Assembly (NCBI GenBank): GCA_043820285.1
Contig: JBDRDX010000047.1
Location: forward strand, 1-56,233
Direction: 5' to 3'
Source: Patescibacteria group bacterium
GTDB taxonomy: Bacteria > Patescibacteriota > Gracilibacteria > UBA1369 > JAHKBB01
Length of the DNA: 56,233 bases
The number at the start of each line of letters is the position of its first letter. Positions within the stretch are counted from its first letter, which is position 1. Made by a program: the position numbers and the translations under genes. The notes below the pieces were generated by a model that saw only the letters and a list, made by a program, of their open reading frames with translations, was not told where the DNA came from and did not search any database. Below, piece by piece: positions 8,875-19,563 of this stretch.

Positions 8875-9501
8875 TTATTTCGAATAGAATTCAACGATAA
8901 GTTGGCTTTCAATGCTTGAGTCAATATCGTCCTTGCCCGGCAGTTTTGTGACTTCCGCTTTCAGATTTGGGAGATCTACTTCAAGCCATTTTGGCGATGT
9001 GTCCTTTTTCTTCTTTAGCGGCTCAAACATTTTTGCGGATTTTGATTTCTCGACAACTTCAAATTTATCACCAACCTTTAATGTGATTGAAGGTACTGTA
9101 ACTTTTCTTCCGTTTAGTTTAACAAGTCCGTGACTGGCAAGCTGTCTTGCCATTGCTCTTGATTCTGCAAATCCTGCTCTGTACAGGACGTTGTCCAATC
9201 TTTCTTCAAGTAATTTCAGAAGTGCATCGCCTGTAATATCGTCCATTTTTTCGGCTCTTTCATAGTAAATATGGAATTGTTTTTCAGCGATGCCAAAGAT
9301 TCTTTTAGCTTTCTGTTTCTCTCTTAACTGTTTTGCGTATTCAGAAAGTTTTTTGAAAGATCTTTTTCCTCCGTGTGCTCCGGGAATGTAATTTTTTCTT
9401 ACCAGTGCGCATTTTTGTCCTTCACATCGTGCACCCTTAAGAAAGAGTTTTTCACCCTCTCTTCTGCATAGTCTGCAAACCGGTCCGGTATTTCTAGCCA
9501 T
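8875..9501 (-). CDS. rpsD: 30S ribosomal protein uS4
   Basis: MARNTGPVCRLCRREG.KLFLKG, QLREKQK, LEERLDNVLYR. Confidence 0.98.
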   Translation of the reverse strand: MARNTGPVCRLCRREGEKLFLKGARCEGQKCALVRKNYIPGAHGGKRSFKKLSEYAKQLREKQKAKRIFGIAEKQFHIYYERAEKMDDITGDALLKLLEERLDNVLYRAGFAESRAMARQLASHGLVKLNGRKVTVPSITLKVGDKFEVVEKSKSAKMFEPLKKKKDTSPKWLEVDLPNLKAEVTKLPGKDDIDSSIESQLIVEFYSK

Positions 9502-9506
9502 TACTT

Positions 9507-9541
9507 GTTGTGGATTAATTTTTTCATTGTCCTCGCCTTCG
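9507..9541 (-). repeat. 5' motif (family II) with MKKLIHNK mini-ORF (9501-9527) upstream of rpsD
   Basis: Minus strand GAAGGCGAGGACAATGAAAAAATTAATCCACAAC; one of five copies. Confidence 0.85.
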
Positions 9542-9561
9542 GTAACTCGAGGGTGTCTTTT

Positions 9562-10008
9562 TTATACTCTACGTTTCTTTTTCTTCCTGCATCCGTTGTG
9601 TGGGACAGGAGTGATGTCTGTTAATGATTCGATATTGAGCCCCGCCGAGTGAAGTCCTCTTACCGCCTGTTCTCTTCCCGACCCAACTCCTTGTACAAAT
9701 ATGTGCGCTCTTTCCATTCCATACGCTTTCGCCTTTCCTACAGCTGTTTCCGCCGTAACTTGAGCTGCATATGGAGTTGCCTTTCTGGTTCCTCTGAATC
9801 CGCATGATCCAGCGGAGGCCCAAGCTATAACTTCGCCATTTAGTTCTGTGATGGTAACCAATGTGTTGTTGTAAGTTGATTTGACGTACGCGTTTCCTTC
9901 GATAACGCTTCTTCTTTTGCTTTTGCTCTTTTTAACCTTCTTAGGCTTGGCTTCTTCTTCGACTTTTTCCTCAATCTTTTCTTCTTTTTTAGCTTCTTTG
10001 TCAGCCAT
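9562..10008 (-). CDS. rpsK: 30S ribosomal protein uS11 with charged N-terminal extension
   Basis: STYNNTLVTIT, GFRGTRKATPYAAQ, DITPVPHNGCR. Confidence 0.98.
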   Translation of the reverse strand: MADKEAKKEEKIEEKVEEEAKPKKVKKSKSKRRSVIEGNAYVKSTYNNTLVTITELNGEVIAWASAGSCGFRGTRKATPYAAQVTAETAVGKAKAYGMERAHIFVQGVGSGREQAVRGLHSAGLNIESLTDITPVPHNGCRKKKKRRV

Positions 10009-10027
10009 TTATTTGCTGATTATTTTT

Positions 10028-10063
10028 TCTTGATAGGGCACTACGCCTTTCGGCTCCGTGCTG
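10028..10063 (-). repeat. G.A-loop hairpin repeat (family I) just after the rpsM stop
   Basis: Minus strand CA-GCAC-GGA-GCC-GAAA-GGC-GTA-GTGC-CCTATCAAGA; compensatory GCAC/GTGC in place of consensus GCGC/GCGC. Confidence 0.8.
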
Positions 10064-10067
10064 CTGA

Positions 10068-10445
10068 TTATTTTTTAGGTGCGGCTTTCTTATTCGCAAT
10101 TGTTTTTTTCTTACCTTTTCTAGTTCTGGAGTTGTATCTTGTTCTCTGCCCGCGTGTTGGAAGACCCCTCCTGTGTCTAAATCCTCTGTATGAACCGATC
10201 TCCTGAAGTCTTTTAATATCCATTTGAACTTTTCTGCGAAGGTCTCCTTCCACCGGCATTTTCTCGATGTACTCGCGTAATTTCCCAACCTCTGTCTCTG
10301 TCAGATCTTTGATCTTTGTGTCCTTATTTAATCCAAGAGACCGGGTAATCTTCTCACTTGTGTTGCGGCCAATACCGTATATAGCAGTCAATGCCGCTTC
10401 CAGTCTCTTATCTTTTGGTAAGTTGATACCCGCTATTCTTGCCAT
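10068..10445 (-). CDS. rpsM: 30S ribosomal protein uS13
   Basis: [35 protein letters not shown]. Confidence 0.98.
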
Positions 10446-10450
10446 CTTAA

Positions 10451-10482
10451 GTTGTGAATTAATTTTTTCATTGTCCTCGCCT
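10451..10482 (-). repeat. 5' motif (family II) with mini-ORF (10433-10471) upstream of rpsM
   Basis: Minus strand AGGCGAGGACAATGAAAAAATTAATTCACAAC. Confidence 0.85.
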
Positions 10483-10495
10483 CTGGCTTTGGCGG

Positions 10496-10609
10496 TTAAC
10501 CTTGTCTTTGCTTATGTTTTTTAATTTTACAGATCACACGAATCACGCTTTTTCTGCGGATTACCTTACACTTGTCACAAATTTTCTTTACTGACGCTCT
10601 GACTTTCAT
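10496..10609 (-). CDS. rpmJ: 50S ribosomal protein bL36 (not in the ORF track)
   Basis: Manual translation [41 protein letters not shown] overlap with infA. Confidence 0.97.
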
Positions 10610-17523: not shown

Positions 17524-17525
17524 GT

Positions 17526-17894
17526 TTATAGTACGTCAGGCGCTTGTGAAATGATTTTTTGATAACCTTTGTCTCTGAGCTCTCTTCCCACCGGTCCAAA
17601 TACACGTGTTCCTTTTGGCAGTCCATCTTTGTTGATGATTACAACTGCGTTTTCATCGAATTTTATATATGAACCATCTTTACGTCTAGTGTTATTTCTG
17701 CATCTTACGACAACAGCTCTTTCTACGGCCTTTTTCTTAACAATCCCTTTTGGACTGGCCTTCTTTACCGCAACTACGATGATGTCGCCAAGTCCCGCAT
17801 ATTTTCTTTTGCTGCCGCCAAGTACTTTGATGCATTGTACTTCTTTTGCTCCTGTGTTATCCGCTACTTTTAGTCTTGATTCTGTTTGTATCAT
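17526..17894 (-). CDS. rplN: 50S ribosomal protein uL14
   Basis: [30 protein letters not shown]. Confidence 0.98.
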
Positions 17895-17899
17895 TTTAG

Positions 17900-17932
17900 G
17901 TTGTGAATTAGTTTCTCATTTGGTCCTCACCT
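17900..17932 (-). repeat. degenerate family II 5' motif upstream of rplN
   Basis: Minus strand AGGTGAGGACCAAATGAGAAACTAATTCACAAC; mini-ORF reduced to MRN*. Confidence 0.65.
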
Positions 17933-17942
17933 TTTTTTTTGG

Positions 17943-18001
17943 TCTTGACGGGAGCGCTTTGCTTCCCGTCGCTAGGGCGCTACGCCTTCGGCTCCGCGCT
18001 G
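17943..18001 (-). repeat. family I S+L repeat supplying the rpsQ C-terminus and stop
   Basis: Near-identical (1 substitution) to 17160-17218; encodes SAEPKA*. Confidence 0.9.
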
Positions 18002-18213
18002 ACAGTCCATCTCTTTTTCTTGCTAAGTGGTCTGGATTCGTAAATCGTCACTTCATCTCCCTCTTTGTACTTACTTGCCGGATCATCTGCCATATATTTC
18101 TTTGTGGATCTGTATCTTTTCTTATACTTAGGATGAGATTTGTATGTGTGAACTTCGACTACTATAGTCTTTTCCATTTTATTACTTACAACTTGTCCTT
18201 TTTTAGTTCTCAT
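17980..18213 (-). CDS. rpsQ: 30S ribosomal protein uS17
   Basis: GQVVSNKMEKTIVV, HPKYKK, ESRPLSKKKRW. Confidence 0.97.
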   Translation of the reverse strand: MRTKKGQVVSNKMEKTIVVEVHTYKSHPKYKKRYRSTKKYMADDPASKYKEGDEVTIYESRPLSKKKRWTVSAEPKA

Positions 18214-18400
18214 GTTTGTGATCGTTTATTATTGTTAATATTTGCGCAATGTATTTCTTTAACTTCTTGATCTTGTGAGATGCTTTTTCTTGTCCGGTCT
18301 CCACTTCAAATTTTACTTTAAATAGTTCAATTCGCGCTTCCCCTAATTCTTTCAGGAGGCTTTTTAGTGGTATTTTTTGTAGTTCTTCCAGGTCAACCAT
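18203..18400 (-). CDS. rpmC: 50S ribosomal protein uL29
   Basis: Position between rplP and rpsQ; ELFKVKF...TGQ...H.IKKLKK.IAQILT. Confidence 0.9.
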   Translation of the reverse strand: MVDLEELQKIPLKSLLKELGEARIELFKVKFEVETGQEKASHKIKKLKKYIAQILTIINDHKHEN

Positions 18401-18819
18401 TACTTTTCATGTGTGTTAATAAATCTGCATTTTACTGGTAATTTTTGTGCTGCGCGTCTCATGGCTTCCTTTGCCAGATCTGTTTCTACACCTGCCATTT
18501 CAAACAAAATTGTTCCTTTTTTTGCCAGTGCAACGTAAAAATCCGGTGCTCCCTTGCCACTTCCCATTGGTACTTCTGCTGCTTTTCTTGTTATTACCTT
18601 ATGCGGGAATATTCTAATCCAGATTTTCCCTCCTCTTTTTATATATCTTGTCATTGCTCGTCTCGCCGCTTCGATCTGCCTGGATGTAATTTCGCTTGTT
18701 TGCATAGCCTTTAACCCGTATTCACCGAAGCTTACAAGGGTTCCGCGTGTTGCAGTGCCTTTGAAGGCTCCTCTTCGTCTAAATTCTTTTCTATGTTTTT
18801 GCTTACGTGGCTGCAGCAT
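18400..18819 (-). CDS. rplP: 50S ribosomal protein uL16
   Basis: [35 protein letters not shown]. Confidence 0.98.
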
Positions 18820-19523
18820 TATTTCTCGGCTTTTTTAGTGGTTTTTTTAGGTTCTTTTTCCTCCCTTGGCTCCTCTACCGGCTCTTCCTTTTTTTTCTTG
18901 AATATTTCGCCTTTGTATATCCAAACTTTTATTCCAATTATTCCGTATGTCGTGTGTGCCGGGACCAGTGCATAGTCAATATCTGCTCTGAATGTGTGTA
19001 GAGGAATTTTCCCCTTCGAGAAAAATTCCGTTCTTGCGATTTCCACGCCGTTTAGTCTCCCCGACAGGAGGATTTTTGCTCCCAGAGCGCCCGCTTCTAT
19101 TGCCTTGTCGATAGCCATTTTCGCCGCTCTTCTGTATGAGATTCTCTTTTCAACTTGTCTTGCTACGCCTTCTCCCACGATTTTTGCACTTAGCGCCGGA
19201 TTTTTCACTTCTCGGATGTTGATCTCGAATCTGTCATCGAATTTTTTGTTTAATTTGTCTCTGAGTTTTTCGATTGCTGTTCCTCCACGTCCGATTATCA
19301 GTCCGGGTTTTGCTGTGTGAATGTTAATGATCACTTGATTTGCGGTTCTTTGGATCTCAAGATGAGAAATCCCGGCTTCTGTCAGATCTTTTTCTATAAG
19401 TTTTTCGATTTCCAGATCTTGATGAAGTAGTTTTGCGTAGTTTCTTTTTGTAGCGTACCACTTCGAGTTCCAGTCCCGAATCACTCCTATTCTAATTATA
19501 TTTGGATTAACCTTTTGTCCCAT
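18819..19523 (-). CDS. rpsC: 30S ribosomal protein uS3
   Basis: [41 protein letters not shown]. Confidence 0.98.
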
Positions 19524-19530
19524 AATACAA

Positions 19531-19563
19531 GTTGTGAATTAATTTTTTCATTGTCCTCGCCTT
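19531..19563 (-). repeat. 5' motif (family II) with mini-ORF (19507-19551) upstream of rpsC
   Basis: Minus strand AAGGCGAGGACAATGAAAAAATTAATTCACAAC; 32 nt identical to the rpsM copy. Confidence 0.85.

Follow-up and report, generated by a model that had tools for sequence, protein, structure and literature searches.

Just upstream of several ribosomal-protein genes of an uncultivated Patescibacteria group bacterium (assembly GCA_043820285.1, contig JBDRDX010000047.1) lies a short repeated motif that contains an ATG and a miniature open reading frame (mini-ORF), which reads MKKLIHN in its simplest form. The motif belongs to a stretch of 56,233 nt, referred to here as the window, whose minus strand carries the S10-spc-alpha ribosomal-protein cluster, with rplC at 22943 at one end and rplQ and rplM near 7000 at the other (genes named by Pfam). 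The favoured explanation, given a probability of roughly 0.45, takes the motif for a recently copied leader module, one that works independently of a Shine-Dalgarno (SD) site, and its upstream ATG for a passenger. By position the motif occupies the ribosome-binding region, as its 3' half makes up the -5 to -30 region of four start codons and no other candidate ribosome site is present. Its composition and its UUAA box, moreover, match the start grammar of the genome. The first-pass annotation of this DNA had proposed a portable cassette that delivers ribosomes by termination-reinitiation. The portable module has stood, as it is discrete, sharp-edged, set at a near-fixed distance from starts and found only in the ribosomal-protein cluster; the ribosome delivery is not supported, for reasons set out below.

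The motif and its distribution

The motif has the form (C)GAAGGCGAG(G/A)ACAATGAAAAAATTAAT(Y)CACAAC, spans 31–35 nt and occurs in four near-identical copies on the minus strand, before rpsD, rpsM, rpsN and rpsC. Inspection of the sequence, a pattern search and a profile search bear out the earlier placement of these copies 5–7 nt ahead of the start codons, together with a degenerate copy before rplN, and Pfam confirms that the genes behind them encode S4, S13, S14, S3 and L14. Copy 1, CGAAGGCGAGGACAATGAAAAAATTAATCCACAAC, lies at 9507..9541 and ends 5 nt before the ATG (9501) of rpsD (S4, 8875..9501; nhmmer E 8.3e-10). Copy 2, a T variant at 10451..10485, likewise ends 5 nt before the ATG (10445) of rpsM (S13, 10068..10445; E 1.3e-9), and copy 3, a GAGA variant at 16513..16547 that also forms the 3' arm of a hairpin, ends 5 nt before the ATG (16507) of rpsN (S14, 16283..16507; E 6.5e-9). 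Copy 4, again a T variant, at 19531..19565, stands 7 nt from the ATG (19523) of rpsC (S3, 18819..19523; E 1.2e-9). The decayed copy, GGTGAGGACCAAATGAGAAACTAATTCACAAC, lies at 17900..17933 on the same strand, ahead of rplN (L14, 17526..17894, ATG at 17894), and scores E=0.26 against the profile; it retains the 3' nucleotides TAATTCACAAC, GAGG and the ATG, so that GAGG and ATG are present in all five copies, and carries indels that shift the frame. The Pfam profiles begin at residues 1–3 for L14, S13 and S4, and those three annotated starts are therefore correct.

A core pattern, ATGAAAAAATTAATYCACAAC, matches the minus strand at 9507-9527, 10451-10471, 16513-16533 and 19531-19551, and with two mismatches also the plus strand at 16558-16578; shuffled sequence gave a mean of 0.02 matches to this 21-nt core, and none of 100 shuffles reached five. 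The plus-strand match belongs to a partial inverted copy of 26 nt (16553..16578), 85% complementary to the motif, with a profile E=1.3. When the 5' part GGCGAG(G/A)ACA is included, 31 nt are identical across the copies save at two sites, G/A and T/C. The 5–7 nt that separate the motif from each ATG are dissimilar (AAGTA, TTAAG, TAACC and TTGTATT), which gives the motif a sharp 3' edge. The copies fall into pairs: those of rpsM and rpsC are preceded by GCCAAAG..A.A, have T at the Y site and are followed by TT, and those of rpsD and rpsN are preceded by CCGAA and have C at that site. As these pairs do not track gene order, at least two rounds of copying are indicated. The word CTAATCACAAC in the rpsH leader (16211..16221, minus strand) resembles the motif's 3' end, lacks both ATG and GAGG, and may be there by chance.

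Across the genome searched (1,066,333 bases, 97.9% complete), the profile built from the four copies recovers these four at E<=6.5e-9 and, beyond the rplN and inverted copies, only noise. The 21-nt core, allowed up to four mismatches, has six matches genome-wide, five of them in this cluster and one unrelated, with four mismatches. All six recognisable copies, the rplN and inverted ones included, lie within 9507-19565 of one contig, and the genome-wide search that the first-pass annotation called for finds none outside the cluster. No other genome in the species set belongs to this family, and the relatives compared come from other families of the order and are distant (S8 at most 59% identical). 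At up to three mismatches in 28 nt, the motif is absent from the 204 other genomes of the order and present in 1 of 205, namely this one; a smaller set from the same order likewise has it in 1 of 61, again this genome. Conservation at orthologous intergenic regions, also put forward earlier as a check, is not seen: in the 16 relatives inspected, the leaders at the orthologous junctions are unrelated to the motif. In public collections, whose scans may leave out records of the window's own genome, the exact 21-mer occurs in 10 metagenome contigs and three species genomes, none of the 13 with GGCGAG(G/A)ACA and all single, unrelated occurrences.

Five groundwater sequencing runs from four studies contain the stretch or part of it. 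They were compared as contigs, so that starts, ends and levels of RNAs cannot be read from them and uncovered parts carry no meaning. In two studies, DNA contigs cover the copies before rpsD and rpsN with no differences, and a metatranscriptome contig of 242 nt (19476-19717) joins the 3' end of rplV, copy 4 and the start of rpsC, also with no differences. The latter fits co-transcription across the motif, and carry-over of DNA is possible. One run, X4 (share 0.12), holds short identical pieces only, none over a motif among those listed.

Several candidate signals were also considered. Rfam has no match at gathering score over the window and none at E<=1 over 6900-23100. A sigma-70 promoter scan of that same region returned 22 sites vs 24.8 expected, one of them on a motif copy (rpsC) and none common to the copies, and a promoter was rejected as an explanation. 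The best duplex of the motif with the whole 16S rRNA (-21.1 kcal/mol vs a shuffled mean of -21.4) was equalled by 51 of 100 shuffles, and that with the last 60 nt of the 16S (-15.2 vs -10.5 +/- 2.8) by 15 of 200; pairing with the 16S as a stand-in for the SD was rejected as evidence. No stretch elsewhere in the genome is complementary to the motif.

Translation starts and the mini-ORF

Starts were taken genome-wide as the first ATG of ORFs of at least 150 aa. In the region from -20 to -4, SD cores precede 6.9% of 697 long ORFs vs 11.8% in a control window; among homology-anchored starts in the ribosomal clusters of the 16 relatives, an SD core occurs in 4 of 327, and G makes up 3–8% of positions -15 to -1. 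Neither this genome nor its order uses SD sites, and no SD is found within 20 nt of the main ATGs. The 16S ends in the canonical GGATCACCTCCTTTCT, so that comparison with its 3' end, as the first-pass annotation had suggested, finds the anti-SD retained and SD sites unused. No bS21 gene (PF01165) was found in the 97.9%-complete genome, and no uL30 gene is seen between rpsE and rplO, both of which are consistent with the published picture of Parcubacteria-type bacteria of the candidate phyla radiation (CPR). For part of the Parcubacteria, the SD helix is described as lost or unused (PMC9297842, in the portion bearing on that group).

Towards its 3' end, at helices 44/45 or close by, the 16S gene itself (genome contig C17:27077-29336) is interrupted by an insertion of ~790 nt, flanked by AAGTCGTAA and CAAGGTA, which codes for a LAGLIDADG-type protein of 205 aa (Pfam E 1.7e-10). 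The canonical anti-SD lies in the ~50 nt that follow the insertion. Were the insert excised without re-ligation, the anti-SD would come to lie on a separate small fragment.

The regions before starts have a grammar of their own. G drops to 8–12% at -15 to -1 (697 genes), A peaks at -12 to -10, and a TAA or TTAA box starting at -17 to -12 precedes 354 of 671 genes vs 94 of 671 in a control window, with ATTAA and TTAAC as the top words and TTAA peaking at -16 to -14. As only 44 of the 354 boxes close an open frame of at least 60 codons, stops of upstream genes do not explain them; and since operon-internal and operon-first genes have the box equally often, a promoter -10 box does not by itself account for it. 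TATAAT stands at -15 to -10 in 15 genes. The box may be this lineage's substitute for the SD site, or may in part be the -10 box of mRNAs with short leaders. In the motif, TTAA starts at -17 in three copies and at -19 before rpsC, and the 3' 24 nt hold a single G.

The mini-ORFs within the motif, all on the minus strand, translate exactly as first described. MKKLIHNK* (9501..9527) has a stop that overlaps the rpsD ATG (TAATG), the frame within copy 2 (10433..10471) ends 13 nt inside rpsM, MKKLIHN* (16510..16533) stops 2 nt before the rpsN ATG, the frame within copy 4 (19507..19551) ends 17 nt inside rpsC, and MRN* (17908..17919) stops 13 nt before the rplN ATG. The upstream and main ATGs are separated by 26, 26, 26, 28 and 25 nt, so that no mini-ORF is in frame with its gene, including the two that end inside one. 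Relative to the main starts, the stops lie at -1, +2, -13, -17 and +13 nt. Only the first two fall within -8 to +10 nt, given in PMC10666635 as the range predictive of reinitiation; for the natural pairs in E. coli and Haloferax that it covers, the same source describes reinitiation as dropping steeply past ~10–14 nt and lost by 20–38 nt.

The placing of the stops near the starts proves to be what chance provides. When mock ORFs were opened at the same offsets before 695 genes, 65% at offset 26, 41% at offset 28 and 34% at offset 25 stopped within -15 to +17 of the start, and the joint chance of such geometry for the four copies is ~0.1. The high rate at offset 26 is largely due to the frame NNA-TGN across the start, along with an A after the ATG in 43% of genes. 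As the mock-ORF rates equal the observed geometry, the latter is uninformative.

Other properties of the upstream ATG can be set beside this. The caveat already raised about its GAGG, which is 4 nt long and lies only 3 nt from the ATG, is upheld, in a genome free of SD sites besides. Scored with a start-context weight matrix, the upstream ATGs fall at the 21st–51st percentile of true starts and the 78th–95th of random ATGs, and the main ATGs at the 61st–72nd and 97th–99th, respectively. Upstream genes stop 24–60 nt before the upstream ATG, a gap too long for a ribosome relay, so that the mini-ORF would require a fresh start. The sole change inside the four good mini-ORFs is synonymous (ATT/ATC), which is one data point, and at ~82% identity the chance that a decayed copy retains its ATG is about one half. 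Counted at out-of-frame positions only, the ATG/GAT ratio is 1.04 at -21 to -1 vs 0.95 in mid-gene; AUG is thus not avoided near starts, which makes an upstream ATG neither an anomaly nor something protected. Fold prediction pairs the GGCG/GAGG block in three of four contexts and buries the whole mini-ORF at rpsN. Taken together, the mini-ORF tests neither refute nor support its translation. The proposed termination-reinitiation is not supported, given that SD sites are unused, that the geometry matches chance, that only two of five stops are in range, that the peptide is lost before rplN and that the contexts of the main ATGs are typical to good in their own right.

Weighing the proposed leader module against its rivals

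On the favoured reading, recent copying in two or more rounds would have spread a module of ~31–35 nt over the ribosomal-cluster junctions of one lineage. The organism initiates without SD pairing, and the module would supply each gene behind it with its translation-initiation region. Its GC-rich 5' block, (G)CCGAAGGCGAGG, is comparable with the GC blocks of other private spacer modules and is able to fold into a small hairpin. With its single G, the 3' half (ACAAUGAAAAAAUUAAUYCACAAC and the 5–7 nt that follow) would offer an open A/U-rich landing pad, and it sets the genome-typical UUAA/UAA box 16–18 nt ahead of the start. In all likelihood the upstream AUG is a mere passenger that the genome, which does not avoid AUGs near starts, tolerates. 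We infer that the module was retained because it makes a good leader, and hold the route of its copying and any role for a hairpin to be equally conditional.

A number of observations weigh against this account. The calling of starts genome-wide is crude. The TTAA of the motif sits on the shoulder of the genomic distribution (-17, or -19 at rpsC) and not at its peak (-15). The mean probability of being unpaired at -15 to -1 is 0.29–0.71 for the motif leaders vs 0.33–0.94 for other leaders of the cluster, which amounts to no advantage in openness. Identity over 31 nt beside mostly differing 5-nt spacers is far stricter than a compositional pad needs, an excess that argues for either very recent copying or a sequence-specific partner. 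No mechanism of copying is evident, as there are no target duplications, no Y1 transposase was found in the genome, and flanking homology is limited to ATGGCWAGAA in three genes. GAGG and ATG are kept in five copies and the sole change within the mini-ORFs is synonymous, as a translated mini-cistron predicts. Because of the letter-perfect identity, the question of a copying mechanism and the restriction to a few genes, an operator, a mini-cistron and a selfish repeat all stay in contention as rivals.

A translated mini-cistron, in which ribosomes initiate at the upstream AUG, translate MKKLIHN and terminate at or near the main start, there to reinitiate or to have opened the mRNA, is unlikely. 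It would account for the GAGG and ATG in all five copies, for the lone synonymous substitution (ATT/ATC) in the four good ORFs, and for upstream ATG contexts that beat 78–95% of random ATGs; no mini-ORF is in frame with its gene, the anti-SD is present, and bS21, which in Bacteroidia hides the anti-SD, was not found. The two stops at -1 and +2 nt also lie within the range that works in the E. coli and Haloferax pairs treated in PMC10666635. However, three of five stops (-13, -17 and +13 nt) lie outside -8 to +10, the stop geometry occurs by chance at the rates given above for offsets 26, 28 and 25, and SD sites are unused in the genome and the order, with a GAGG of 4 nt only 3 nt from its ATG. 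A fresh start at the mini-ORF, with the upstream gene 24–60 nt away, brings no obvious gain over one at the main ATG. Furthermore, GGCG/GAGG is paired in three of four predicted folds and the mini-ORF is buried at rpsN, the peptide is lost in the rplN copy, and other private modules likewise fill spacers, with no ATG. A bolder form of the proposal would make the module a natural bicistronic-design element: in a genome otherwise averse to SD sites, and with no bS21 found, its GAGG-AUG would be among the rare spots at which the free anti-SD tail engages, and ribosomes, once through seven fixed codons, would pass to the starts of S3, S4, S13, S14 and formerly L14. It is quite improbable; if true, it would imply a private loading lane for these small-subunit proteins, possibly one that senses the state of the ribosome, and a portable cassette that spread because it is functional wherever it lands 5–7 nt before an ATG.

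A shared operator, through which one trans-acting factor (an S4-like ribosomal protein, another RNA-binding protein or a small RNA) co-regulates S3, S4, S13, S14 and, more weakly, L14, would explain why letter-perfect copies stand beside unrelated spacers and why the motif is restricted to ribosomal-protein genes. Two of its sites are starts classically under S4 control, that of rpsM in E. coli and that of rpsD in Bacillus. Yet Rfam gives no match even at E<=1, the four contexts have no common predicted fold, the motif has no complementary partner elsewhere in the genome and shows no special fit to the 16S, whether whole or in its last 60 nt, and its absence from the 204 other genomes of the order means that it is not an old operator; this explanation is very unlikely. 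Rather improbable, too, is a neutral or selfish mini-repeat of the repetitive extragenic palindrome (REP/REPIN) or miniature inverted-repeat transposable element (MITE) kind, spread by recombination or an unknown enzyme and surviving only where harmless. Sharp edges, two subfamilies (rpsM with rpsC, rpsD with rpsN) independent of gene order, one decayed copy, an inverted doublet at rpsN that forms a REPIN-like hairpin, and spacers longer here (median 56 nt) than in the 16 relatives (12–41 nt) are what such a repeat would leave behind, but there are only 4–6 copies in one 10-kb stretch, in a single orientation relative to the genes except for the doublet arm, and three of the four copies are exactly 5 nt from an ATG. 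Terminal inverted repeats and target duplications are absent, and no Y1/RAYT transposase (PF01797) was found in the 97.9%-complete genome.

The recently copied leader module, if this reading is right, bears on a question of some breadth, namely how the many small-genome CPR bacteria initiate translation independently of SD pairing. A piece of 31–35 nt that recurs at a set spacing from the starts of several genes, all essential and highly expressed, is a ready candidate for a leader that is sufficient for such initiation, and the UAA/UUAA box ~15 nt before half of all starts is part of the wider picture. Were the mini-ORF translated after all, it would be a natural precedent for engineered bicistronic design. 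Possibly weightier than the mini-ORF is the observation that the ribosomal-protein spacers of the order consist of genome-specific, G-poor words or modules with a fast turnover.

Other repeats of the cluster and known systems

At least five repeat modules, the motif among them, are private almost wholly to ribosomal-protein genes; the others, designated D5, D8, D13, the GC-rich repeat and the rpsK hairpin, carry no ATG. Genome-wide, the modules lie within this cluster, between rpsL and rpsG and, on another contig, inside the C-terminal tail of rplS. The long spacers follow a plan of stop codon, GC-rich block or hairpin, 20–30 nt of G-poor leader and ATG, to which the motif conforms, and its 5' end, (G)CCGAAGGCG, is the word that opens a 70-nt module and also appears in the rpsK hairpin. 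That 70-nt module, with a GACGGGA...TCCCGTC hairpin, has three copies at 86–100% identity (14224-14293, 17149-17218 and 17932-18001), which lie before rplE, before rplN where it adjoins the decayed motif, and inside the S5 tail just before rplO. A nested hairpin of 49 nt, GCGCAAAG(A/G)GGACAACGTCCTAATTTGCGCC, occurs in two copies of 90% identity before rplQ and rplM (7421-7469 and 7823-7871); a hairpin also stands before rpsK, and the 49-nt hairpin and the MKKLIHN motif have the word GAGGACAA in common. GC-rich units of the type AGCGCGAAGCGAAGCGGAGCGCCAA and their relatives, whose first triplet varies between TAG, AAG and CAG, are found almost only at ribosomal-protein genes (window 14208-14365, 16224-16297, 20303-20371, 21236-21430 and 37347-37420; genome contig C7:14109-14170). 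They form untranslated spacer right after the stops of S14 and S12 and are read in frame in a 66-aa C-terminal tail of S5 and in the tail of L19, and this repeat may move between coding tails and spacers.

At rpsN the motif takes part in a structure of its own. The inverted copy as 5' arm and copy 3 as 3' arm form a perfect 17-bp stem in the mRNA (16513-16529 with 16562-16578), which buries the upstream ATG and the entire mini-ORF of copy 3; the predicted fold of the 130-nt context has -29.7 kcal/mol. The 5' arm starts 12 nt past the stop of rplE, so that a ribosome on its way off that gene would start to melt the hairpin, which ends 6 nt before the rpsN start. The hairpin may therefore act in classic coupling by unfolding (PMC12548453), tying S14 synthesis to translation of rplE, a suggestion drawn from the layout of the sequence. 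Alternatively, it may mark a processing site. The four motif contexts have no common predicted fold, and because the copies are near-identical covariation cannot be shown.

Leaders in this cluster are repeatedly rebuilt from lineage-private repeats. The cluster's spacers have a median of 56 nt vs medians of 12–41 nt in the 16 relatives, four of which have 30–58 11-mers common among their own cluster spacers, and the other 12 have at most three. The repeated words of the relatives are genome-specific, G-poor and mostly tandem heptamers, for example GCCTAAA/GCCTAAC, CTAAATT, AAAATTT and CTACTAT. At loci L016, L023, L024 and L028 (relatives G001, G003, G021 and G017) the heptamers are CCTAAAT/TCTAAGA, CTACTAT, GCCTAAA/GCCTAAC and AAAATTT. 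Autocorrelation is highest at a lag of 7 in 7 of the 16 relatives, and clearly so in three, with values of 0.40–0.47 at L016, L024 and L028; in the spacers of this genome there is no lag-7 signal (0.33 vs 0.27–0.34 at other lags). Directly upstream of rplC, in the usual position of rpsJ, the minus strand carries an ORF of 3268 aa (23056-32862) with MopE-type metal-binding repeats (E 1.8e-45) and bacterial TSP3 repeats (E 6e-24), which resembles a giant surface protein.

Among known short repeats, REP and bacterial interspersed mosaic elements (BIMEs), REPIN doublets, enterobacterial repetitive intergenic consensus (ERIC) sequences and Correia elements are transcribed within operons, often as hairpins, and are palindromic, present in tens to hundreds of copies genome-wide and not tied to starts. 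The rpsN locus, as an inverted doublet, is like a REPIN; unlike all of these, the motif is non-palindromic, has few copies and keeps a fixed distance from starts. Bicistronic designs and coupled gene pairs, so far as PMC10666635 and PMC12548453 describe them, also have a short ORF that ends near the next start, and two of the five stops here, at -1 and +2, would suit. In those designs and natural pairs, the first ORF contains the SD of the second start, and stop and start are a short, fixed distance apart, whereas here the main gene has no SD and distances run from -17 to +13 nt.

A closer parallel in appearance is provided by the direct repeats of the heptamer TAACTGA in marine Beggiatoaceae, some Cyanobacteria and Bacteroidetes, which abut starts, also inside ribosomal-protein operons, and whose function is given as unproven and presumed translational in the parts of the report that treat it (MacGregor 2015, PMC4679880). 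Like those repeats as they are described there, the motif is G-poor, stands a few nucleotides before starts in place of a ribosome-binding site, and occurs at ribosomal-protein operon junctions that include S4. Several of the relatives, too, have heptamer leaders, each specific to its genome, at these junctions. In contrast, the motif is a single unit of 31–35 nt with a GC block and an ATG and shows no lag-7 signal, and against the ~170 sets genome-wide mentioned for TAACTGA (PMC4679880), it has 4–6 copies in one gene cluster.

Finally, the setting in which the motif occurs recalls the SD-independent initiation of Bacteroidia, where, in the sections of Baez et al. 2019 (PMC6847099) that concern start regions, the anti-SD is kept, SD sites are absent and an A-rich motif lies at about -14 to -11. 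Here, too, the anti-SD is retained, SD sites are unused and upstream regions are A-rich and G-poor; in Bacteroidia, by that same account, unstructured leaders tune initiation. The likeness has its bounds. AUG is depleted near the starts of Bacteroidia, with a ratio given there as ~0.6, and this genome has 1.04. As no bS21 was found here, the way in which Bacteroidia hide the anti-SD does not apply. Unlike the starts of Bacteroidia, moreover, those of this genome have a prominent T at -15, which forms the UAA/UUAA box that the motif also carries.

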